Source: Raillietiella orientalis (lineage: Eukaryota). From it: a stretch of 64,000 nt of DNA. The first letter of the stretch is position 1; every line of letters begins with the position of its first letter. Where the stretch lies: positions 11,532,001-11,596,000 of the forward strand of contig JAYWIR010000001.1 in assembly GCA_036172245.1 (NCBI GenBank), given 5' to 3'. The translations under genes were made by a program, and so were the position numbers. Positions 560 through 24,959 of this stretch are shown here, one piece after another. The notes beneath the pieces were generated by a model, which searched no databases, had not been told where the DNA came from, and was given only the letters and a program-made list of their open reading frames with translations.

Positions 560-1690
560 AGCGTTCGCGCGACCGATGCCGCGGCAGGAAATGCGATCGT
601 CGGGGTGGTCGATATCGCCTCGAGCGATTGCGGGCCCCCCGCGAACGGTAGCACCTGGTTGCAGGAAGCCGTTCGCACTTGGGCGCAGCACGAGCCACGC
701 TCGGAACAGGAACAGCGCTCTCTGCACTGCTTTTACAACAGCTGCTCGCTACGGGAGATCCTGGAACACCCATTGAAGAGTGCATGGGCAGGAAGAACCT
801 CCCTCTCCACAGCGCTGCTCTCCTCAGGGAACACACGGGCAGCAGCCTTGAGGCGAGATGGGAGGTTAGTGTGGAATTCTCCGCCAGAAGGAAATGACTG
901 GGTGAGTGGACGACGGGCCAGCTCGTGGAGGCTGCGACCCCCAGTGCTTCCCTCCCACGAGGACTTTTGAGCTGTGACGAGCTACTGCGTATTCCTGAGG
1001 AAGACTCGCAGTGGCCCCCAATGCTTCTGGACACGCACACCCTCCCCCTAAAGTGGCAGCAGTCGGCATTTCTGGTGTTGCACTGGGACCTCCCCGACAA
1101 CGCCCGCTGCTCCCAGTGGACCCGGGCGGCTGTGTATCCCAACTATTGCAGGTGCGAGGAACGGGAATTCCTCTCGCACCTGCTTGTAGACTGTGTGCAC
1201 CCCGGCCCCTGTCGTTGCGTAACGCAACGACCCTTGGGGCATCAAAGACAATCCCAGGGACGTCTTGAAGCGCCTCCTCGTGCGCGATGCCCTTTCACCT
1301 GCGGCATCCCTATGCTGCCTACTAGGGATTGTGGTGACCTGGAGCTATGCGAGAGGAGGACGGCGCTCTGGTGACGCCAGCTGCTTCGCCCTGCATTTCC
1401 TGAGGATGACAACTAGATGACTCCACTTGGGACATGCTCAGAAGGAACTTGCCGGCATCCTGGAAAGGATGCAGAGAACGCCCTCCAGCGGACAGCGATC
1501 TCTTCCCGTGCACCCCAGAATCTTTTTTTATTGCTTTTATTTATTCTCACTTCTGTTTGCCTCTCTCCCTCCGCCGCCGAGGTGAACCTCGCCGGCCTTC
1601 GTGCCGGTTACGCGGCAGGTTCCGAGCATGCTCTGACAATGTAGGGCTGATGGCCCTACATCTGTATGTTTATTATTTTTTATAATAAAC
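560..1690 (+). mobile_element. Degenerate Tx1/L1-clade non-LTR retrotransposon, 3' part of ORF2 plus 3' UTR
   Basis: ORF 925-1374 has a zf-RVT-like motif (LPDNARC...NYCRCEEREFLSHLLVDC). A T-rich 3' UTR and AATAAA (1684-1689) follow. Frameshifted. 600-980 is visibly homologous to 4250-4620 on the minus strand. Confidence 0.7.
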
Positions 1691-1699
1691 GTCCCGCAG

Positions 1700-2185
1700 T
1701 GACCGGGTGATAAACCAACTGTGCCAGGTGCGGGGAGTTCGAATCACTCATCCAGCCCAGGACTGTGCTGTCCTCCGGCCCCTGTGGGAACTCTTCGCCG
1801 CCACCCCAGGAACCCCCGACGGCAACTCCAGGGACGTTCCGAAACCTCTCCTCGTTCGCGACGCCCTTCGACTCACAGCCTCGCTAGCAGTCCTGTGCTG
1901 TCGACGAGGGATCCTCGCTGCCTGGAGTGACGCAAGAGGAAGACACAGCGACAGGGGTGCCACATCCACTTAGCCGTTCGATCCGTGAGAATGCAACAAG
2001 ATGGTCCCGCCTGAAGGACAGTGTGCTGTAAGGGTTTGCCGTTATCCTCGAAAGTACGCAGACGACCGTCCCCAGCAGGAGTTGACCCCTTCCCACCCCC
2101 TCCCCAAATTTATGTATTTATTTTCATTTTTGTTGCTTTTTTTCTTTTTGTTTGGCCCCTCCCCTCTGCTGCCGTGGTGAACGTT
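1700..2185 (+). mobile_element. Second Tx1/L1 3'-end fragment in tandem
   Basis: From about 1720 the sequence translates CARCGEFESLI (zf-RVT-like). Its 3' UTR shares a T-rich tract and a CCCTCyGCyGCCGwGGTGAAC block with the upstream copy. Confidence 0.6.
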
Positions 2186-2639
2186 CTTTTGCTTTCTAAC
2201 TCGAGTCTAAGGATCACCTCCGTGCCGGGAAGTGCCATTTTGAGAGTTCTTGCTGTTCACCCTGCTAGTTTGCCTGCGACCTTCGCGAGCTCGGTGAAGG
2301 ACCCCCTAGTGATTTCGCATCTTCAGTTCAGGAGCGCTCTTGCTGCTTACGTTCCGGTAGAAGACCTGCCACCACTGAACCAGGGATTCTTGCAGGCGGC
2401 TTCGAATTTTTTGTGCAGCCACTGCAACCCTTTCTCCGGAATTCTTGGTCCTCGCTCTGCGATGCTCGTCGGTTCTCTCGAACACTCGTCGTGGGAGGCT
2501 GCAGTCCAGGCATCCGGAGATGGAGCCCACGCTCACTGTCGAATGTCTCAGCTCTTCGGCTAGCAATGAGCGCTGCTTTCTGAAGAGGACACGAAGGTGG
2601 GGCTTCGTTCGAAACCCCGAACGTTTCAATCACGTAAGA

Positions 2640-3745
2640 TCGTAAAAATAGGTACATATATTTCAGTGTATAAATTTATATAGAGACTATCATGAATTAG
2701 AAAGCTCATTATGTATACTAATATACGTATTCATGTAGAGATTGAAATCCAAATTTATTTTGACATTCATATTCATTAATAGTCATTAGCAAGAGTATAT
2801 GCTGATTACATATATTTGCATATAGATTGATATTTAGATAAGTATATATTAGAAAGATTATAAAACTCTTTAAAATTAAAAATCTATGTATTATATAGAT
2901 TATAATACTACATATCTTTTTATGTATATTAATATGCATACTGATATATAAGTTGGCATAAATACTAATATGTTTTCTCAGGTTAAAAAAAATATATGTA
3001 TGTGCTCCCCGTTTATGTACACGGGCACATATATTTATGTATAGATTAATAGACTAATGTGGAAATCTATTTTCACGTACATATTTATTGATATGATTGA
3101 GAATACGTATTAATGTATATTATTAATATACACAGTGAAGATTATTAACAAACATAAATGCTTATTATGTGCATTCATGCATATTTATAAATCAACTTAA
3201 TGAATTTATAAATATCGGTTGTTAAAACATGAGACATAATTATGGCAATTTAAAAACTGGAAAAAAATGAAGGAACAAACAAACAAGCAAATTAAAAGGA
3301 CAAAACAGAAATTTCGTATTTCGTTTTCCTGTCGTTTCCAACACCCAATAAGCGAAACCTCCTCAGGAAATGACGAATTCTATTTCCGGATGTTGATCGA
3401 TCGCTAAATGTATATGCATGTTTCTGATTCAGAATTTATATATTCATTTCATATACATCTATTATGTGTATAAGTGTGTATGATAAACATGTATAATTAT
3501 TTTTATAAACTTTAATTTATTTTTATTTACATAGAATCAATTGTGTGAGTAAATGGATTTGTGGATTAACTGGATTTGTGTATTAATGCATACACCAGTA
3601 TACACAAAACGCATATATATGTATCTTTTCTGATATTTATAATATACATATTTACATATAATACAATATGAGGATTAGAAATGAGTTGATCTGTATATAA
3701 ATTTCGATACAAAGATGTATATAATAAGCACGTGTATTTATTCTT
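2640..3745. other. Sharply bounded AT-rich block (possible non-autonomous insertion)
   Basis: Abrupt switch to very AT-rich, TA-rich sequence between GC-richer flanks. No credible ORF. Confidence 0.5.
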
Positions 3746-3989
3746 AAGGTCTTTCGGGATTTTGATCGCCAGCTATGCAGCTGTGGATCTCTTGAAGCCA
3801 CACGCGATGCTTTCGAATCTGCTTCTTTTCTGCCGCTGAACCACACCATCAGCTCGACTTTCCTTTCGGCCCAAGAGTGCACCTGAGGAACCCTTCGCAC
3901 TTCATCCCAGTGCTTTCACAGCAGGACTGGAAGAGCAGACAGCTGCTGCGCCGGACGGAAGAAATCTCGACAGCAGGAGGACACGAGAG

Positions 3990-5290
3990 CCGGATTAAGT
4001 GTACGAACGTCATGGACCACGTGAGCATGTTTGTCCTCCAGAACCCATGAGGCACCTCCGCTTTGTTCCTGGACCTGCGCGGACAGACCTCGTGTGCGAA
4101 CTGGAGTTTTCCGCCATTTGGGTGGTCACATTGTCGAAGGACTGTCTTTAGTACACACGAAGGAGAGCGCCACAGGGTGCGCGCAAGTTTTGCGGGAAGG
4201 ACAAGGGAGGAACAAGTGGCCTCGACTGACCGGGCCACTGCAGGTCTTCCTCCGGAATACCCAGTAGCACGCCCGGGCGCAAAAGTCCACGAGGTCGAGC
4301 ACTCGGGGTCGCCACGTCGGTGAGCTGGCCCGTCGTCCACTTGCCCAGTCTTTTTCTCCTCCCGCAGATTTCCACGGTAACCTCCCATCTCGTCGTGAGG
4401 CTGATGCCCATGGGTTCCCTCAGGGAGAGCAGCGCTGCGGTGAGGGAGGTTCTGCCCGCCCACGCACTCTTCACGGTATCTTCCAGGATCTCCCGGAGCG
4501 TGCAGTTGTTGTCACCGCGTACAGGAAACGTCGCACCTGTTCCGCACTTGGCCCCTGGGTCCTCGCCCACGTGCCAACGATTTCCTGCAACCAGGCACTA
4601 CCGTTCACGGGATGGGACGAGATCCATCCCGTGTTTATCCTCGCCAGCGTGGTCACCTGCTAAAGGTGCAGTCCGCAGTGGATGAGGCTGCGTGGACGTG
4701 AGTCCTGCGTTGCCAGTGGCTTGCTGAACGGGGAGGCGTGCAGGGACGCATCAGGTGGTGCTCCATAACTTCGCCACAAGGGCAGGAATCCTGAACTGGA
4801 GCTGAAGCTCCAGCCGCTCCGGCGTCAGGAGGCCGAGGCTAGTCGCGGAGTGCACAAGTCCTTCAAGCGGACTCGGGAGCTCCCTTTGCCCCAAAGGGCG
4901 ATCCTCAGGAGGTCCTTCGTCCTCTTCTTACTCCTCTGGTTTGGAGGGCAAACAAAAAACAGGGGGAACGCAGGAGAGGGGCCACCACGAAATGTTTCAC
5001 ACCGCGGCCTGTTCCGGCAGGTAAAACCTTCCACCTTGGAAAATAGGACCGATCGCCATCTGTTCTTTCTGGAGGTAGCTGGAACACGCCTCCGCAGGGA
5101 GATAATCCCCCAGCGGTGAGGACCGTTCGAGGGAGATGACGGTGTGCTCCGCTACAACCCCGCCCTGCGGGTGATCGTCGCTTCTTCCTGAGGAACACCT
5201 TCATCAGGAGGACGAAGCTGACGATGGGACACGCGTGCAACGCCCGGCACATCCTACAATGACACTCCTGAAAAAGGAGACAAGCACTCA
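3990..5290 (-). mobile_element. Degenerate Tx1/L1 ORF2 3' half, inverted relative to the 560-1690 copy
   Basis: LREILEDTVKSAWAGRTSLTAALLS matches LREILEHPLKSAWAGRTSLSTALLS of the first copy. Also zf-RVT-like LPAKLARTLWR...CPRRSRNKAEVPHGFW. Confidence 0.7.
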
Positions 5291-5599
5291 CGCGTGCGGG
5301 AGAGTATCATCTTGGGCTCCCCTGCGCTGTCTAAGGACAAAGTGTGCGTCTAGGTCGGTGTGATGTCCTGCCCGCGCGGGCCTTTGTGACTCTCAAGTGA
5401 CCCAACTGTCGCGAAAGTGACAGTGTGTATTTGTCGTGTGCATCACCCTTAAATAAATTCACTCCGCTGCGAGTCGGACTGAGGAAAAGGGGAAGTGGAC
5501 GCCAACCATGATGTGCACACGACCTCGTAGCGGTTCGTAGGACGGCGTGCTCATCGGTCGGGAAAAGAATCTTCACAGCTCAGAGGTCGCGAGGAAGTT

Positions 5600-7100
5600 C
5601 GTCTGCCTCTCGAGCCTGTCGGCGGGAAGAATCGGGAGTAAGAACGGGGAACGATGGCGGCGGTCTTAGCCGGACTTGCGGTGCTCCATGCAACCGTCCA
5701 AGGATCCTTGTGGCCGCCGTGGTAAATAGAGTTACGCAAATTGAGCCGCTGGCTACGCGGAGTGTCATGCCGAGGAATTATCCACGCGCAGAGGCGCATC
5801 CCGACGGACTGCTCTGGCACCTTGCGCGGGGCAGAGAGAGATGACGAGTGGAAGAGTCCATCGGGGGTCGAAGAGCCGCACTTTCGGCCCATCGGGTCGT
5901 TATCCGGGAGACGAAGCACAAGGAATAGTCTTCCACGCAGGACGCAGGGTGTACATGGCGCGTCTCCGACGGAGGGTCCGCACAGGTCCAGTTCTGCAGT
6001 CGCTGGTTGCACGAGATGCTGCGGGGCAGCAACAGCGCGGCGGTGTGCTGCCTGCGGAGCAGAAAGACGGTTTGTCGATGCGAGGAGTCCAACACCGCTG
6101 ATGAACCCGCCGGACGTGGTGGCTCTGAGAAGGCACACGTCGGCAGCCCTAGGCTGGACCATCAGCTTCCGCATACGACCGGCACGGTGGTCGAACCGAA
6201 AGCACGCTCTGTCGTCACCACTACGAGCAGCTGCTGCGTCAAGGACACCAAGCCGCGCGCGTGGGCGCTTCGCGCTGCATTGCCACGGGGTCTCTGCTTC
6301 GCGCCACTGCTCCAGGTGTTTAGGCAAACCGCTCTGACTCCCTGCAGGAGGACGGAGTCGAGGAAGCGTGGGAGTACATCCGCCGGCCTTCCACGTGTGC
6401 GGAGACAAGGGACTCGGAGCAGGACAGAAAGCCCTCTCGCCGTCTTCGTTCTTAGCGGACGTGCGAAGTTCGTGGCCACCAGGTGCACCGCTTTTCAGGC
6501 TTACCGCATTTCCGAAAACACCCGAAGTCCTTGCGGAAAATTCCGTCTGACTCGTGAGCGACGCCCAGAATGCAGTTTTTTCCCTGTTGAAATTCAACCT
6601 CCATCATCTGCGAGCTCGCGTTCCGGAGGAGGAAGCTTCGACAAGAGCACCGTTTCTTTTGCTTCCACTGCAGTCAGAGGCATGAAGAACGGAAAGGCGT
6701 TCACAGGATGGATGAGCGCTATAAGAGCGCAGCAAATAAGATGCCAGGAGGAGGAGGAGAAAGGGAAGCGGAGGAGGAGGAGGTCGGGAAGGGAAAGGGG
6801 AGGAGGAAGAGAAAAGGAAGCGCAGTCTTCGACCGACCTCCTACGCATTGCGATGCTCTCTGCAATGGCTGAAAAGAGCAGGTGCTCGTGTCGACCTTAC
6901 TTTTCAGGTAATGGGTCTGGAAACGTGGCATGTGCTGGGAAACAAAGGTCGAGTTTTCGGTGCGAAAGCTCAGGCTTCCAGCACATTCCTTTGGTGAGCA
7001 AGATGAGGATTTTGGGAAAGCTCTACCGACCTCTTCGATTACGAACGCAGCTTAACCGGAACATCGGATAGCAGAGACCATACACGCGCAAGAATAGGGG
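5600..7100 (+). mobile_element. Highly decayed CRE-like (RLE-type) non-LTR retrotransposon: RT plus Cys/His region
   Basis: Motif remnants in the expected order across frames: RNSLPR (~NAFNSxxR), SMRGVQH.DEP (~GVQQGDP), HTTGTVV (~DDGTLV), GLCFAP (~GLxLN), SRSGGG (~LPxRxGGLG), LRIAML...RCSC...GNG..NVAC (~CxCG..DxxGxHxxxC). Confidence 0.45.
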
Positions 7101-7199
7101 GCCCCACGACTGGAATCTTGTTTCATTCATAGCAGGACAGCACGAGAGTGTTTGTTGCTTGTAGGTTCATCTGTCAGCATCCATCATTAATCAGGGATA

Positions 7200-7560
7200 C
7201 AACAGCACAAAATGCTCTCTCCACGTTCAGAGTCGGCGCATTCGAGATCTTTTGCCACTTCTCGTTTTCTGCTCTCCGTAGGAATTTTATTTCACCAGAA
7301 GAAAGCAGTTCTCAAGTTCTAAGCTTGTACTCCCTGGGATCCCAGATCTTCTACTAAATACTTTTGTTATGCTACCAGCACACATCTTCGGATTGCACCC
7401 TAGTGCTCTCTCCGTAATGCCTTACTTCGAAGCAACCTTTGCGAACTTGAAACGCTTCGTTCTTAGATAGCAGTCACCACTGCTGGATTCAGTGCTCCTG
7501 AAAAATTATTACGCTATTACATTTCACAGCGTCCCATTCAAGGGCGATATGGAAAACGTG
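7200..7560 (-). mobile_element. Possible RTE-clade RT C-terminal remnant
   Basis: Minus-strand EIKFLRRAENEKWQKISN resembles the RTE EMKFLR...RDRIRN motif. Heavily decayed. Confidence 0.3.
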
Positions 7561-9078: not shown

Positions 9079-9507
9079 TCAGCTCAGTATGATCCAACAA
9101 AGCATTGCCATTGCAATCACCGCAGCGTTTTCTCGGTTTTCGTCGCTCTCGTCTTCTGTGTACTCAGTGAACCATGTCACGAATCTGCTTACTGACAACC
9201 CCAGTTCAAAGAATTTGGAATACAAATCTCTGACTGTTCTGAAGTTTCCAAAATCCAGCAGCGAGCGCTTAGCCCTGGTCACTCCCGGTATGCTTCCGAC
9301 GTCATCAGAAGAGAGTCCCGTTCTAACGAAATCCCAAAACTGCTGAGAACTGGAGATGGTGTCATTCCTGTGGGTCATCATTGTGGAATTGTATAGATTG
9401 TTGATTTCATTCAGTACGTTCCAGAAACGTTTTGCTAGCATACGTTGCCGCTCCTCATCAAGAAATACCACTGGACGTGGAAAATTTTCAGGTCGAACCA
9501 CAGACAT
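9079..9507 (-). CDS. Divergent barrier-to-autointegration factor (BAF/BANF)-like protein, intronless. 142 aa from ATG 9507, 100 aa from ATG 9381; the frame is open up to ATG 9783.
   Basis: SSSQQFWDFVRTGLSSDDVGSIPGVTRAKRSLLDFGNFRTVRDLYSKFFELGLSVSRFVTWF...LCW aligns without gaps to human BAF residues 2-66 (recalled sequence). Identities: S4, Q5, D9, F10, V11, V20, G21, S22, G25, L34, F39, F49, L52, F59, W62, plus W84 after a short acidic insertion. The stop falls where BAF ends. Confidence 0.75.
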   Translation of the reverse strand: MSVVRPENFPRPVVFLDEERQRMLAKRFWNVLNEINNLYNSTMMTHRNDTISSSQQFWDFVRTGLSSDDVGSIPGVTRAKRSLLDFGNFRTVRDLYSKFFELGLSVSRFVTWFTEYTEDESDENRENAAVIAMAMLCWIILS

Positions 9508-10489
9508 CACAAGAGGTTGAGGAAGAATGCAGAAACTTTCGATTCGCAGAATTCTTTCAAACGAAGACTCAGCGCTCCGTGAAAGTCTGGACAGAAATCC
9601 AAGGAGTGAGCACAGAAGACCTCGAAAGTAGTAAGACGGGAAAGTAAACGGTTGCCTCGGAAACGCGCTTCCCTTCCAACTTGCTTGTTGAAAGAACCAT
9701 GAAACAACAAAATTTCCACAGAAAGAACTTTTCCGATAATCTCTTAATGCCTTCATCAAGGTTCCAACCGATACCAATGCCATACATGTGATTCATTGAT
9801 CTCAACCTCAAGGCATCGCAGTTTCCAAACAGGGATGAGCTCAAAGTGGCTTCTCATTTCTGTGGTGCGCTTACAAGAAAACCCACAAAGAAACACAAAG
9901 TACAGAGCTGCAAACGGCATGTCGAATGTGCAAAACGTGGCAGCATTCATGAATTCATCGGCGTTCATCGTTCACGTGACACGTACCAAGAAGCACGATT
10001 CCTCACCTCATCCAAAAGGAATATCCATTCCGACTCTCGCTAATTTGGCAGATTCTCATCCACCTTCGCGACCTGTCGTTGCTGCCGCTTCTGCGCCGTG
10101 GGCACAAAAGCAGCAGATTGACAGTATCAAAATGTGAATGCTGCTGAAAGCAGGAGATGGCAGCCTCTTTGCGGTTTTTCGGCTCCTCCAGCTCCATGGT
10201 CTCCGGTCCTCCCTTCCTTTCTCAGCGGAAATTAAAAGGAGAGTTGCAATTTTCTGTGACTGCTGCAGACTTCAGTTGCTTTGTGTCCTGCAGGGCTCAC
10301 CAGCATTCTGCACAGCATGGGAGGCTGCTGTCATACAGGTGAGGATACAGGAAAGTGGACAAAGGGTGCCTAGAAGATCTTTTTCACCAAGAGAGACCTA
10401 AGAAGCACTTCAGCCTCTGCTGATATGCTTGGCTCTTCTATCAAAGTGTCAACCAGAAAGCGGAAACCATGGATGCTTGCGCAATCTGC

Positions 10490-12400
10490 AGAATACAATG
10501 GAGTCCGGCTACTGCTGTTGCTGGCGCACATGGCGAAAATTGTTCACTTTGTTGCCAGTCTGCTGCCTACTTGAGTCGACAGCACATTGTCCACCGACTC
10601 ATGAAGCATTTGGGACGAAATGGCCAGCTGCACTTTGCTAGCACCACTCTTCACAGTACAGTGGAATGGATGGTGAGAGCATGCATGGCGTGCACAGTCA
10701 CAAAGAGATGGAAAGCTCATTCTGCTAACAGCACAATCTCAAATTCGGAGTTGTCCACCTCCTCTTTGGGAAGCACCTAATCGCTGCTCTTGATGCACAC
10801 TGCTCTTCCAGCAACAACCAGTTATCAACGAAGTGCTTCTCCGCAATCTCCAAACCAACTCCAGCCCACTGACAACGTACTGCATGCTGCATGGAGGGCG
10901 CACCCGAATACGCAATCTTCGAATTCCACGTTGCCATGAAGCAAAAGATGATGCGCAAGCTGGTCCAAAACTCTCAAACAAACGCCTAGTACAATCTAGA
11001 GAAACTTCTACACCACAAAACTAGCTTGGTCCAGTGCTTTGTCATATGCGAGTCGGCATCCCAAAATTGCACTTTGACTGGAGCACTTTGACTCCTTGTG
11101 GAGTATGTTACCTGCATATGGTTAGTTCCAGATTGAAAAATGCTTGGATCTGCTTGCACTACAGGCAGACAGCACACAAATAAACTGGCCATCAGAACAT
11201 GTGCACTATTTCTTGGAATGTCCCAAACAGCCAGATGAGGTCTTGCATTGAAGACCTGCGTCTTTAACACAAGACCTCATCTCAACCACAACCGGCAGTA
11301 AGATATCTTGTTTGTCAGATTATCTTGCAGTGAGATATCTTTTGCCCATGAATGGTCACCTACAAAATCATCACTGTACACTACAGCTTTCGCCGTCTTG
11401 CTTCAAGACATTTTGGTGGCATGCAGATCCAAATGAAGATCAGCCAATTTCGCACTTTACACTCATTGGACACGCTGTACAGCAGCTGGATCTCCGAATA
11501 CATGCTTTCATGTAAAGGACCCACCATGTGCACATGGTAAATTTGAATCAACTTTGGTAAGAACTCATTATTCTGCATGCACTGAAATTGATCAGAGATT
11601 TCCTCAACCTGAGGTGACCAGTGAGGAGATTATTCAATGCAATGCTTTCCAGAGACCATCATTCCAGACTGGATGGGCTGAATCCATTCTTCTTCAGCAG
11701 GAAAAAAACAGACAAGTTTGAAAACTACAGGATGTTTCTGGAATGAATTTAAATTTTTTATTGTAACATGCACACATTTGCTCATGCCAACATAGCACCC
11801 TGTTGCAGATTCATCACATCAGAAGATTACTGGAGAATGCTGCAAACTTGATAACAAAAATCTGTTTATACACAGAGCAAGAATTGCAATCAACGAGAAC
11901 TGTTCTTTTTATTTTCGTAGTTGATGCACAGTATTAAGATTGCCATCTTTTCACTTGCCAATGAAAGATGCAAACATGGAACCGATAGAAAACTATCGGC
12001 ATTACTATGATGACGTTTCCAAAAATGCCTGTTGGTGCACAGAAGCTTACATGTCAGTAATATATGCACAGGCTTGAGTATCTGAAACAAGTCCATTTCA
12101 TAGGTTGTTCTATGTGATTGTGGTAAAACACAGTGGCACTCAGAAACATTGGCATGGAAAGGATTCACAAGCATGTAAAGATGCACTGGCATCTACAAAG
12201 AATGACCTGTTCACGTGCTTGTTACAAGGACTCCGCAGAACTTTATTCCATTCCCGAAACCCGGCAACTACATCTTGAATGCAATTACAAATGTGATCTC
12301 CTATTTTATCTTGAAAAGGCATTCTTCATCTAAGAAACAAAATGCCCTACATAAACTAATTCGCTCTAGCCAACTGCACCAAAAACGCCCATACAAAAGA
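10490..12400 (+). mobile_element. Decayed P-element/THAP9-type transposase with possible N-terminal THAP remnant
   Basis: Ordered remnants: CFVICESASQNC (11035; ~VxCDxxxxN), VHYFLECPK (11201; ~YFxDxPHLxK), YKIITVH and QMKISQ (~KLTxxH, KMxV), RPSFQTGWAESILL (11653; ~PxxxGWxxTI), LLEN (~QDxLEN), ACKDAL. Many stops and frameshifts. Confidence 0.55.
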
Positions 12401-13689
12401 AATCATTACACTTTTACACCAAATTAAACATCCAAATACATCTGTTGTGCATGACATATGGTGTCATGCTACTGTGTCTACAGAAATTTAGAAACTCCCA
12501 AACGAAGTTTTCATAACGCTTCAATGAAAACACACTTGCAATGAATTCCTGGAAATTCATGCCAAAGAGAATGTGAAAACATGTCTCACTCTGAATAATA
12601 AAGAAGCTCTCTTGAATACATCTAATGCTCGGTCTTAAAGCTTTACCTCGAATCAGACAAAACTACTGCCTAGTTTACACTGATTCTACTGCATCCCATA
12701 CCATCATTGGGTCAGAAGGGAGAAATCCTTGAACTTCTGGTCGGCAACATTAATCCTACATAAGTTTCACGGCAAGGAATTCTAATAAATAGCTCACCAT
12801 GGATTATCCGCGTGCAGATAACTGAGCACATTGCTGATGAGTTTTGGATTGTAATCATAATCAGTAAGGTCCGGAAATCCTTCTGAATGAGAGGATACAT
12901 CTGGAAGAGATATGGATGATATCTCTTAAGCCACCAGATATTGAGACCGAACCTAAATGAAGTGCATATTTAATAGGTTTCCTTATTTTTGTATTGAAAA
13001 TGGATGTCATAAATCCATTTCATTTTTTCGCATTTCCATTGATAGTTCACGGATGGTAGCAAAAAAGATGTTTCTTCCAATTACTAAACATTTTTTTACA
13101 TCAAAATTTGCATTCCGTTTTTTACACTACAGCTTCTTTTATACTACTACGACTTCTTCAAAATGATAGTGTTTTGTTTTTTTTTAGATGCATAAAGACT
13201 ACGAAAGCAAAACTTCTTGGAACCGTCACCCCTTCTGTGCTACCATTTAGATCCTCTGTTTTTCAGGTTCAGTTTTGACAGTGCCCTTAACCTGATGACC
13301 AATTAAATAACAAAGGTAAGTTCAGTAACTGATAAGGTAATTGCAATGTACTTAAACTTGATCGACCGCATGTTCCATAATTTAACATAATGTGAAATTA
13401 CAGCAGTTACAGAACCCGTAGTTCTTGCACATGGAAATAATACTGTGAGCATCGTTGCCTGGAGCTCTCCTCGTTAAACTTTTATTCATTATTTTAAAGA
13501 AACATACTAACAATCCGAGATGAGAAGACCAAGCTGGGTCATTTATTCATCAAACATAGACATACACGTTAGTACCGCATAATGCAGAATACCGTTGTTT
13601 ACAGGAGGGGAATACTGTCGGACGCCCACTTCGTTCGAAGGGAAGAGGTCAATAAATAATTGAAAATACATATGGAGGAGGAGGCAGAG

Positions 13690-14050: not shown

Positions 14051-14103
14051 CCAGGAGAACTTCTTTCCCCTTACTTCAGGTGCCGACCATTAGCCCTGGG
14101 AAC

Positions 14104-14324
14104 ACATACGTAACCGAGTGGCGAGGATGCCAGCTGGGAAATATGAAATCCCAAGAAATCCTTGCCTTCGTCAGCTTTCATGCGAGCAGCCAGTGTTTCC
14201 TGGGCTCCACTTCATGGTTTCAGCGTGGCCTGCAACCCTTACCAAACCCTTACTTGTCGACTGGGAGAACACTGTGCGAATGGTGGGGAAACCCTTCCAT
14301 CGTTCTTCTCATGTGTCCCCGAAC
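14104..14324 (+). repeat. Left arm of 221-bp inverted repeat (IR1)
   Basis: Reverse complement of 15230-15450 with one mismatch (14248). Weaker similarity extends out to about 14058/15503. Confidence 0.95.
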
Positions 14325-15229
14325 GTTGCAGGACATCGTGTCCAAACGGTCCTTGATACTCGGTCCTCTTCAGTAGATTCACTGTGGCATTTGATCCACG
14401 GCAAATGGTTCTTCAAATTAGGACCTATCAAAAGCATCCACGAGCATATGTGGTCCATAGTGTGTTAATAATACAAGCATTGAATTTTATAAAAGTTTAT
14501 TTATGTAATTTTTATTGAAATTCACAACGAATTTCGGTTTCAACTTTATTCTTCCTCTTCCTCGTCATTAAGTTGAGCAGTTTGCTCTCGAGTGTATATC
14601 GACCTGATTGCTAGCGTTATATTTGTTACATGTGCTAAGAATCCCGGTTATGTGTGTTTGATTTTGTCCGTATCATCGAGAAGCTGGTAGCCGCATCTGA
14701 GTGTGACATCCAAGGATCTGTCGTAGCTGTCGAGAACGTGGGCGTTGAGTTGCCGTGGTTTTGTTGTTTTCCTTTTAACACTTCCATAAATCTCTGGATA
14801 CAAGGATGATGAACTTTCATCAGCTTTTAAAATTTGCATACCATCGTGCCACTGCGTTGTTTGTCTTGTGACAGCCGTTCACTACTGATGTACCTTGCAG
14901 CTTCTGCCTCTGTGACGCCCTCCACGGACGTACGCCTTTCCACATAGTCCATCAGTCCATCCATTTTCTACAATGTACTCAGAAGTTTCATTTACAGCTT
15001 CCAAAGGATTATGATTGCTAATAGAGCTACAACACAATGACTGGACTAAAAAAACGTGTCATCTGTTGATATTTTCGAAACCAAAAGTATTAGTAAACAT
15101 TGTGGACTATTGTAACCCAAGGACACTTTCTGAGCGCAGGCGTCTCAGACGGGATCAAATGTCAAGAACTTTTTGGAGTGGACCACATGTTTCGGTGGTC
15201 CTTTTTGACAGGTCCAAATGTCTTGTAAT
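14325..15229 (-). mobile_element. Internally deleted Mutator-like (MULE) element remnant
   Basis: Minus-strand MDGLMDYVE (~14964), HKTNNAVARWYANFK and HHPCIQRFMEVLKGKQ match MULE transposase C-terminal motifs (DYFE, RTNNxxExWH, HPxIWxFIxxLKxEQ). Both ends carry GGAC/GTCC-rich subrepeats. Confidence 0.65.
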
Positions 15230-15450
15230 GTTCGGGGACACATGAGAAGAACGATGGAAGGGTTTCCCCACCATTCGCACAGTGTTCTCCCAGTCGACAA
15301 GTAAGAGTTTGGTAAGGGTTGCAGGCCACGCTGAAACCATGAAGTGGAGCCCAGGAAACACTGGCTGCTCGCATGAAAGCTGACGAAGGCAAGGATTTCT
15401 TGGGATTTCATATTTCCCAGCTGGCATCCTCGCCACTCGGTTACGTATGT
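15230..15450 (-). repeat. Right arm of IR1
   Basis: Reverse complement of 14104-14324; the mirrored ORFs in the track are identical except at one site. Confidence 0.95.
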
Positions 15451-16699
15451 CGTCCCAGGGCTTATGCGCTAATCAAAGCACCTGAAGGAAGGGAGGAGAA
15501 GTTTGCCGTGGACCGAACGCCTCAGTGGACCTTTTGGATGGAACCAAACATCCGCGAGTCATCTCTCGACTTTTCCCCTCAAAGATGATCTTTTTCATGC
15601 TTTTGTGCAGCATGTATTCTAACCGAATGCAGTTCTTCTAAAGTAGGCACTAAACGATGCCATCTAGAGATGCACGGGACAAATTAATGATTGGGATGCA
15701 TGCACCCACAGACGCCGTAGGGCTAGAGCATTACTTTAGGGGGAATGCCTGCGTCTGGAATCGTATACCCGCGAATGTTTTATGCACGACATTGCTTTAT
15801 GAAATCCACATCTGTTTAAGTTAACAGCAAGGGCGAAGCAGTGCTTTTCCCCGCTGCTTCCAGGCACACGTCCCAATCTCCTGCTTCTCCTCCGCTGGTG
15901 AGGGTCGCACCACCTTGCGAGGTGCGTCAAAGGCAACGTTTTGAACGACGCGGAGTTTCTTCCCTGAATGCCCACAACGCAGCACGCGTGCGCACCCGCA
16001 CGCAATGATTCGAAAAACACCGCGATGCTCAAAGGTCAACGCGACCGTCTAAAAGTTTCCTTTTCGCCACCGCATTTCCAGATAAGCAATTGTTTTTTTT
16101 TCGAGGAGTTTGAAAATGATACGGGATTTTAGGAATCTGGCGACAGAGTGCTGTGCCTGGGATCCTACATGCTTCTGTGTGCGGCGCTACATCCGTTTCA
16201 CCTCGCGGATCTCACTGGGGTTCCCTAAGGTGATCTCTGAGATGAGTAAGATGATCTCGAGAGAGGAAGAAGGCTTTTAAGATCACGGTGCCTGGGATCA
16301 GCATCAGGATGCGTGGTCATTTCGGAATGGTCATTTTTATTATTATTATCAAAGGAGAAACATTCAGAGAAGTCTCTAAAGGCACCGCAACCAACCACAC
16401 CATGCAAGCAGTCCTGTGGTGCAGGTAGCAACCTTGGGTTCTCCGTAAAGTGTTGCACCACAGATACGCAATGTTATCGTTGCCACTGAACTTTCAGGTT
16501 GACCTCGGTCACCGCTACCCTTGATGCTTCGTTCAACTCACATGAAGCCAAGCTCTTCTTCCTTGTTCTTGCTGATGATGACGCCTAAAGAAAGGAAAAA
16601 AAAATGGAAACTGTGCGGACCTGTGAAATTCCTCTGGTTGGGTACACGCTAACGATGGTTGCTGCCAAGCGCTCGCCGTGCTCCTCAGAGCTTCAACGA

Positions 16700-17320: not shown

Positions 17321-17328
17321 CAACAACC

Positions 17329-17558
17329 AGAAGAAGAACAAGACCAACAACTGGAAGAAGAAAAAGTACAGGATGGAGAACAAGAGTTGGCAAGGTTGGC
17401 AACCCTGCTCTCTCTTAAACCAGCAATCCTTAATTGGCCGCCACTTTAACCGCATAGGTTGGTCGTTCTCCTCCTCTTTTGTCTGCGTGGTGACCCCGGG
17501 TCTGCGGTCACGCGCCCGACGCTCACGCACTCCAAGAAACGGCTGGTGAGTGGCGGCA
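17329..17558 (+). repeat. Left arm of 230-bp inverted repeat (IR2)
   Basis: Reverse complement of 18271-18500 with 8 substitutions and no indels (counted by eye). Confidence 0.95.
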
Positions 17559-17579
17559 GCGACTCGTCCACGTGGTTCG

Positions 17580-17900: not shown

Positions 17901-18270
17901 GCGCCTGTGGCCAGCTTCCCTTTCGCCACCGCACGCAATGCCCTTTGAGATGCCGGTCGCGAGCTACCGTATGCGGAGAGGTCAATACTTGAAGTCACCG
18001 TGCACTGCCTATGCAAATGGGGGGCGAAAAGACTGCTCTTCTCTAAACATGGCGTCTCAGTTGCTGCAGGTGGACGCGTAACCGGCCGAGTGCAGGATGG
18101 TACCGCAAGAAATCCTTTCCTGGCATTCGGCTGCACGACATGCTCTGGAGGAAGCGCGGCGGGACTGGTCATTTCCTTCTGCGCAGCGCCTTCCGACCTT
18201 CCATCTCGCGGCGTTTCTCGCAAAGAATTTCATTTTCAGGCAACACCGCGTTGGATGCAGGAACAGGCGA

Positions 18271-18500
18271 TGCCGCCACTCACCAGCCGTTTCTTGGAAA
18301 GCGTGAGCTTCGGGCGCGTTACCGCAGACCCGGGGTCACCACGCGGACAAGAGAGGAGGAAAACGACCAACCTATGCGGTTAAAGTGGCGGCCAATTAAG
18401 GATTGCTGCTTTAAGAGAGAGCAGGGTTGCCAACCTTGCCAACTCTTGTTCTCCATCCTGTACTTTTTCTTCTTCCAGTTGTTGGTCTTGTTCTTCTTCT
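18271..18500 (-). repeat. Right arm of IR2
   Basis: Reverse complement of 17329-17558. Confidence 0.95.
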
Positions 18501-18559
18501 TCTTGTTCTTGGTGGTGGTGGTGGTGCTCTCATCCCCCCTACTCCCACCTCATGAAGGA

Positions 18560-24485: not shown

Positions 24486-24959
24486 TAGGCTGATCAACAA
24501 TGCCGCCGCGCGCAAGCGCGGGAGGGAAAGCCGTAGGCTGATCAACAATGCCGCTGAGCGCAAGCGCGGGAGGGAAAGCCGTAGGCTGATCAACAATGCC
24601 GCCGTGCGCAAGCGCGGGAGGGAAAGCCGTAGGCTGATCAACAATGCCGCCGGCGCAAGCGCGGGAGGCGCAAGCGCGGGAGGGAAAGCCGTAGGCTGAT
24701 CAACAATGCCGCCGTGCGCAAGCGCGGGAGGGAAAGCCGTAGGCTGATCAACAATGCCGCCGCGCGCAAGCGCGGGAGGGAAAGCCGTAGGCTGATCAAC
24801 AATGCCGCTGAGCGCAAGCGCGGGAGGGAAAGCCGTAGGCTGATCAACAATGCCGCCGCGCGCAAGCGCGGGAGGGAAAGCCGTAGGCTGATCAACAATG
24901 CCGCCGTGCGCAAGCGCGGGAGGGAAAGCCGTAGGCTGATCAACAATGCCGCCGTGCGC
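24486..24959. repeat. 48-bp minisatellite: 9 full units plus one partial
   Basis: Unit TAGGCTGATCAACAATGCCGC(CGC/TGA/CGT)GCGCAAGCGCGGGAGGGAAAGCCG starting at 24486, 24534, 24582, 24630 (62-nt variant), 24692, 24740, 24788, 24836, 24884 and 24932. Confidence 0.97.

Follow-up and report, generated by a model that had tools for sequence, protein, structure and literature searches.

A divergent BAF-fold gene of a large lineage-specific family with dN/dS above 1 and a putative X-box promoter

In this study we find that a small intronless gene in a window of 64,000 nucleotides, the whole stretch of DNA analysed, encodes a divergent protein with a predicted BAF fold and belongs to a family of at least 43 loci in the same genome. 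BAF is a textbook example of a conserved gene of one or two copies, whose product bridges DNA at the nuclear envelope. The explanation that best accommodates our results, and to which we assign a probability of roughly 0.55 for the whole chain, is that the window gene encodes a positively selected, probably spermatid-expressed, non-bridging derivative of BAF that takes part in genetic conflict.

Results

The gene and its reading frame

The coding sequence is a single exon of 142 amino acids, stop included, on the minus strand (Table 1), and the intact open frame described in the earlier note is borne out. Three sister copies lie inverted on the same contig, 0.15-0.45 Mb away, within blocks that are 89-99% identical to the window and have differing breakpoints. 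We take the ATG at 9507 as the start because these sister copies break a longer frame and because heavy divergence begins at this position. A 234-residue reading from 9783 was rejected: in the sister copies its upstream extension is interrupted by a stop or by indels that shift the frame, and it is also nearly undiverged between them, strong divergence setting in at the 9507 ATG. The acidic loop insertion reported earlier is present, but its net gain is just 4 residues and a similar insertion is found family-wide. Pfam gave no domain above its cut-off for the 142 ORFs of at least 165 amino acids in the whole window or for 105 shorter ones within the first 17 kb.

Table 1. Features of the window gene and its surroundings (positions within the window)
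Feature	Position	Strand	Basis or remark
Coding sequence	9079..9507	-	Open frame; start backed by sister copies
BAF-fold domain, residues 50-142	9082..9360	-	VIA-align and Foldseek on predicted models
N-terminal extension, residues 1-49, predicted helix 18-41	9361..9507	-	Model; amino-acid changes between copies abundant
Helix-hairpin-helix turn, residues 70-81, VGSIPGVT...	9265..9300	-	Gly25 kept, Gly27 replaced by Thr
RFX X-box-like palindrome GTTGCCTCGGAAAC	9651..9664		144 nt upstream of the ATG
Segmental-duplication block	8667..13015		Matches copy at C1:11.95 Mb (95% and 89%)
Adjoining duplicated block	659..7256		99.3% identical, inverted, C1:11.958-11.965 Mb
Decayed M16 peptidase gene, upstream neighbour (context only)	10569..13414	-	Copies on C47 and C23 match at 67-73% DNA identity

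A predicted BAF fold

The Pfam SAM_BAF profile (PF02961) scores the window protein at 15.8 bits (E 0.02), under the curated cut-off of 25, and the domain alone at 17.3, so that sequence alone is insufficient to prove the BAF identity proposed in the earlier note. Seven paralogous loci pass the same cut-off. A profile built from 8 sequences ranked BAF first in the PDB (E 0.054), and in the ESM Atlas a paralogue retrieved BAF clusters at 0.95. With the window protein itself, phmmer against the PDB returned chance hits only and the ESM Atlas gave no usable hit; word-indexed protein searches with this protein or with a 17-sequence alignment found no match among proteins of near length.

Structure prediction of the protein alone agrees with the earlier proposal. 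Two AlphaFold models were built from paralogue alignments of 17 and 8 sequences, canonical BAF being absent from both, and have mean pLDDT values of 87.7 and 86.8. Both match the BAF chain 9j8m_K with a VIA-align Z of 14.4 and an rmsd of 1.6 A over 87 of 88 aligned residues, while the next-best chain among the 48,161 searched with both models reaches Z 7.2. The first eight Foldseek rows are BAF throughout, at E 0.015-0.14, with no row at E 0.001. Helical models may reach such Z values by chance, according to the structure tool's own caveat; we nevertheless accept the BAF fold because the gap to the next row, the full coverage and the sequence hits concur. In the predicted models the five-helix BAF fold spans the whole domain, and on this modelled evidence the window protein has a BAF fold.

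The residue equivalences given in the earlier note all hold in a gap-free register, in which positions of the window protein equal the human ones plus 50, or plus 54 beyond the acidic loop. The equivalents of the BAF core are F60, V61, V70, G75, L84, F89, F99, F109, W112 and W138, and the replacements relative to human BAF include K6>Q56, G27>T77, G47>S97 and A12>R62.

Interaction surfaces of the domain

We compared the binding surfaces using residue lists from the available text of PMC6212729 and PMC13712952, the list of DNA contacts being derived from a predicted model. The window protein keeps 3 of 14 DNA-contact positions (Ser4, Gln5 and Gly25), 3 of the 7 LEM-binding residues F39, Q48, V51, L52, L58, E61 and W62, with Leu58 changed to Arg, and 1 of the 6 lamin-binding residues V11, A12, P14, E83, A87 and F88. 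On the dimer face, Val44 has become Asp and Val51 has become Glu, and the dimer-centre position 47 is Ser, Ser, Glu and Asp in the four copies. What the window protein shares with BAF/BANF1 (PF02961; PDB 9J8M, 2EZX, 1CI4, 6GHD) is the whole-domain fold, the hydrophobic core, Ser4 and Gly25. It differs in being about 20% identical, in a 49-residue N-terminal extension, in the replacement of Gly27, Lys6, Gly47, Leu58, Ala12, Pro14 and Phe88, and in a domain net charge of -4 versus +1; its family also differs in having dozens of copies, a dN/dS above 1 and an X-box promoter. Judged by these residues, the window protein appears to be a BAF-fold protein that fails the tests of a canonical BAF.

The same positions are eroded family-wide, Gly47 being kept in 2 of 42 domains, Leu58 in 0/42, Ala12 in 3/42 and Gly27 in 8/42. 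Among the best-kept positions are Ser4 (33/42) and the two residues of the Pro-Gly hairpin (39/42 and 34/42), which may be kept for folding rather than for binding. For the non-DNA-binding role suggested in the earlier note, the loss of most contact positions and the retention of these residues point in opposite directions. In the accessible part of PMC11811190, Ser4 is placed near the DNA backbone. The available text of PMC5638020 reports that in human BAF the L58R change abolishes LEM binding and that G47E is dimer-dead. The pattern of replacements suggests that both DNA bridging and envelope tethering would have been lost. A decoy that pairs with BAF in the manner of BAF-L, as suggested in the earlier note, is doubtful because the dimer-centre glycine (Ser here, Glu or Asp in sisters), the lamin-face residues and Leu58 are lost; Val44 and Val51 are likewise acidic. 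Since L58R and G47E occur naturally among the copies, these offer a ready series for studying a BAF domain that lacks bridging or envelope tethering.

A large family of BAF-fold loci

The 210-Mb genome contains one canonical BAF (145 bits), arthropod-like in kind, with an intronless coding sequence and ordinary host genes as neighbours. In addition, 20 contigs carry at least 43 divergent BAF-fold loci without introns, comprising 42 full domains and one fragment, so the gene earlier described as stranded is one of many. Stop codons are absent from 37 of the 42 full domains and present in five. The census started from four seed proteins and a local profile, and its counts are lower bounds from searches that favour intact copies; a further seed gave 8 more candidate places, 3 with stops and some weak, which lie outside the analysed set. 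Family members are only 11-24% identical to canonical BAF and keep Phe10 in 42/42, Phe59 in 39/42, Leu34 in 36/42 and Trp84 in 33/42.

A quick tree places the window copy in a 28-member genome-specific clade (SH-aLRT 99), and the lineage-specific BAF paralogue proposed earlier is supported. In the same tree, which has no verified BANF2 row, 62 of 104 inner branches are open and the whole family is not traced to a single origin. Outside this genome, 252 proteins among 1.84 billion match at E 0.001 and none at 1e-30. The closest to the family profile have E about 1e-18, and the closest single-domain ones about 1e-10. Five of ten outside matches looked up are named BAF or BAF-like, from mussel, abalone, fish and two nematodes. 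The BAF-like proteins of mussel, abalone, saury and nematodes indicate that extra BAF paralogues recur in animals, and they resemble the present family in having a Pro-Gly hairpin in place of Ala-Gly and in the frequent replacement of Leu58. However, unlike the family described here, the outside rows mostly keep Gly47 (60/85), Gly27 (77/85) and Lys6 (60/85), counts in which 18 of 85 rows are near-duplicates. In the literature searched, from which most subscription papers were absent, we found no large and fast-evolving family of BAF proteins described.

Several members have features of their own. They often occur in inverted, identical or near-identical pairs that resemble ampliconic palindromes (contigs C3, C36 and C54 of genome G000). 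Two loci (L017:808-1812 and L021:1483-2535) encode about 200 extra N-terminal residues, alike in both and without a Pfam match. An 802-codon open frame with a serpin fragment (L030:3860-6265) adjoins the C36 cluster.

Duplication and surroundings of the window gene

The window gene has moved by DNA duplication in a repeat-rich setting. Apart from two weak matches elsewhere, the 4 kb around the ORF match only segmental copies on the same contig; parts of the larger duplicated block are common to the copies at 11.69 and 11.99 Mb, and an older copy, the fifth, is found about 45 kb from the gene. The two weak matches, on C47 and C23, reveal positions 10570-13410 as a decayed M16 peptidase gene, which we take to be insulysin-like. 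An ORF in the C47 and C23 copies matches PF16187 at E 1.3e-31; these two copies are nearly identical to each other.

These results change the picture of origin given in the earlier note. Its "transposon graveyard" is right in that a dispersed, high-copy repeat occupies 640-1720 (3331 candidates, 40 of them scored), but the nearest upstream neighbour of the gene is the decayed host M16 gene. Carriage by a transposable element finds no backing in the flanks, which recur with the ORF in same-contig segmental copies only. Nor is a retrogene origin supported, because the coding sequence of the canonical parent itself lacks introns; the recent copies are DNA duplications.

Selection on the coding sequence

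The four copies differ by 7.5-15.5% in coding DNA and by 0-6.1% in the flanks, with distal flanks at about 1%. In 100-base bins, 0-1 sites differ at 300-600 nt upstream against 4-24 within the ORF. Our own codon model, whose likelihoods agree with IQ-TREE, was applied to 140 of the 142 codons, two gapped columns being dropped. Across the four copies M0 gives a dN/dS of 2.21 (P 0.0025 against 1), or 2.48 (P 0.0047) once double or multi-base changes are allowed, and M2a is favoured over M1a (P 4e-5 and 0.003). No purifying class is detectable among these copies (P 0.82). A tree-free count of 15 synonymous and 90 nonsynonymous changes gives a synonymous share of 0.14, where 0.23-0.28 is expected under neutrality (P at most 0.005 in 1000 runs for each of three kappa values). 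In a neutral simulation all four frames remained stop-free in 102 of 5000 runs, and the real frames stay open while the flanks carry indels of 1, 4, 7 and 8 bases. A separate clade with four intact members gives a dN/dS of 1.62 (P 0.019; M2a P 2e-4).

Sites with a posterior above 0.9 are residues 14-16, 25, 27, 33 and 34 together with human positions 41, 43 and 47. Seven of these ten best-supported sites fall in residues 14-16 and helix 18-41 of the N-terminal extension, so this extension, earlier called optional, does not look so.

Some of the figures are weaker. Of the six pairs, that of the window copy and L002 has a dN/dS of 1.03, and no more than 6 changes are private to the window copy. 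Among 31 older family pairs dN/dS ranges from 0.67 to 3.06, scattered around 1, one pair without synonymous change being left aside. The dS of the ORF (0.056-0.127) is also higher than that of the flanks, which indicates that gene conversion or a local excess of mutation contributes; four consecutive discordant sites suggest conversion, and conversion can inflate site tests. The pattern resembles that of peak-of-divergence duplicates, with a diverged coding region between nearly identical flanks, which the available text of PMC3924837 expects where selection resists gene conversion. What sets our case apart from that text is that dN is also higher than dS, among four copies, and that the pattern is seen again in a second clade. 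The open frames and the dN/dS above 1 speak against the dead pseudogene considered in the earlier note, and we regard a functional gene under selection as very probable.

In one sister copy (L004:1501-1956) the stop codon has been lost and a 10-residue acidic tail gained, from sequence lying in the 3' non-coding part of the other three copies.

A putative X-box in family promoters

Genes that work in sperm and in ciliated cells typically carry the X-box as a control motif, and RFX also serves sensory neurons. The palindrome upstream of the window gene, GTTGCCTCGGAAAC (9651-9664), fits the published GYTRYY N1-3 RRHRAC and is the best PWM site of the window. We grouped the 42 loci into 25 promoter clusters and used consensus strings from the available text of PMC2375033; our earlier patterns had been picked after the motif was seen. 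The restricted consensus occurs in 8 of 25 upstream windows versus 2/25 further upstream and 1/25 downstream (3/50 controls), with 0.6 and a maximum of 3 in shuffled promoters (P 0.005). Enrichment also holds for two looser strings (10/25 and 14/25); the strictest published consensus shows none, with 1/25 family promoters.

A de novo search of the 25 promoters returned the X-box as its top motif (96.6 versus 57-72 in three shuffled sets), and in a leave-one-out analysis at 12 bits it was found in 12/25 promoters versus 1/25 and 0/25 controls. In five diverged promoters the X-box accounts for 11 of the 19 invariant columns. By sequence criteria, then, the family promoters carry a putative RFX X-box; the accessible text of PMC2375033, on Drosophila, cautions that control by RFX cannot be predicted from a degenerate X-box by itself. 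We found no X-box within 30 kb of canonical BAF and none of 15 bits in 20 kb at a radial-spoke head gene, which failed as a positive control and whose true 5' end is unlocated. The genome encodes this gene and two RFX domains, which makes motile axonemes, probably those of sperm flagella, plausible. In the mouse, spermiogenesis is under the control of RFX2 (PMC4498915). Around the window X-box, positions 9601-9700 differ by 5-6% between copies versus 0-1% further upstream, the motif itself being unchanged.

Discussion

The germline or conflict role suggested in the earlier note is backed by the dN/dS above 1 and by the X-box, and the explanation we favour builds on both. Single-exon BAF-fold genes would form a large family specific to the lineage and spread by DNA duplication in repeat-rich and often inverted blocks, with positive selection driving their proteins apart. 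RFX would activate the window gene in cells forming cilia or flagella, of which spermatids are the likeliest, and the protein would enter the nucleus with its BAF core and hairpin kept. It would no longer form the canonical dimer, so that DNA would not be cross-bridged and there would be no tethering to LEM proteins or lamin. Instead, we propose that it acts on spermatid chromatin via surfaces new to this role, namely the helix gained at the N-terminus and the former dimer face, which are also the places where selected sites concentrate. The driver would be an arms race, for instance between meiotic drive and its suppressors or in sperm competition. We infer the spermatid expression, the action on chromatin and the conflict alike. 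A broader version, in which BAF, a single near-invariant gene in most animals, gave rise in this lineage to 50 or more RFX-driven spermatid chromatin proteins without dimer, LEM or lamin binding that compete with each other as drivers and suppressors or serve as new sperm nuclear proteins, is possible but tentative; protamines and amplified sex-chromosome genes elsewhere provide a parallel.

The mechanism is modelled by analogy on BAF-L (BANF2), a germline BAF paralogue with an altered DNA-binding face. According to the available text of PMC13443024, BAF-L shares 53% similarity with BAF and forms heterodimers with it, and that of PMC8877947 assigns it a role in the histone-to-protamine change of the mouse, also citing a second knockout that is fertile. 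The present family is far more diverged, has lost Gly47 and can be likened to BAF-L by fold and presumed role only; it is also larger, with at least 43 loci, whereas cichlids have 2-5 copies of BANF2 at most in the accessible part of PMC8268354. If our explanation is true, the BAF fold has been put to use in germline conflict or in packaging the chromatin of sperm, and this separately from BAF-L in vertebrates.

Other explanations have to be weighed against this one. A modulator of the BAF-L kind, forming a heterodimer with canonical BAF and lowering its DNA bridging, would account for the shared fold, the replacement of most DNA-contact residues and the negative domain charge, and BAF-L forms heterodimers and binds DNA more weakly (available text of PMC13443024). 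Yet positions 44, 47 and 51 are Asp, Ser and Glu, position 47 varies between sisters under positive selection, and canonical BAF as partner would be a nearly fixed target, which leaves this reading unlikely. Large families under positive selection are a usual mark of defence, and Ser4 is widely kept; both count for a pathogen-driven diversification in which foreign DNA is sensed or trapped by the copies, or viral BAF antagonists are absorbed by them. BAF does restrict DNA viruses, and viral proteins target it (accessible text of PMC13712952), but the X-box is a signature of ciliogenesis or spermatids rather than of immunity, canonical BAF lacks one in its surroundings and BFVD holds no viral BAF-fold structural match, and we consider an antiviral or anti-transposon role rather unlikely. 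Relaxed or dying duplicates, in which local mutation or conversion mimics selection and the window copy is unexpressed, could explain a dN/dS near 1 in many pairs, the elevated dS and the five domains with stops, all the more as the searches favour intact copies. The low synonymous share, the frames kept open despite flank indels, the retention of Phe10 and Phe59 at so low an identity and the conserved X-box nevertheless make this improbable.

A role in ciliated sensory neurons instead of sperm would fit the same promoter motif, an X-box screen in Drosophila having yielded sensory ciliogenesis genes (available text of PMC2375033). In our judgement, however, a chromatin-protein fold, amplification in inverted repeats and a dN/dS above 1 suit reproductive conflict better, and we rate the neuronal role as slightly more improbable than dying duplicates. 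Finally, high-copy repeats and retroelement-like pieces near several members could point to transposable-element cargo, but the segmental nature of the copies of the 4-kb stretch, their differing breakpoints and the fact that distant members have just the X-box region in common make this the least probable of all. The reading as a fast-evolving spermatid protein derived from BAF remains the one we prefer.

Other features of the window

Pieces related to the 640-1720 repeat occur at 4232-4611, an inverted partial copy within the window. Two inverted repeat pairs lie at 14058-14336 and 15218-15503 (93% identical) and at 17322-17564 and 18265-18507 (95% identical), and a tandem array at 24486-24959 has a 48-base unit in about 10 copies. 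Positions 2600-3750 form a very AT-rich island inside the GC-rich window, and the genome alternates between about 30% and 65% G+C.
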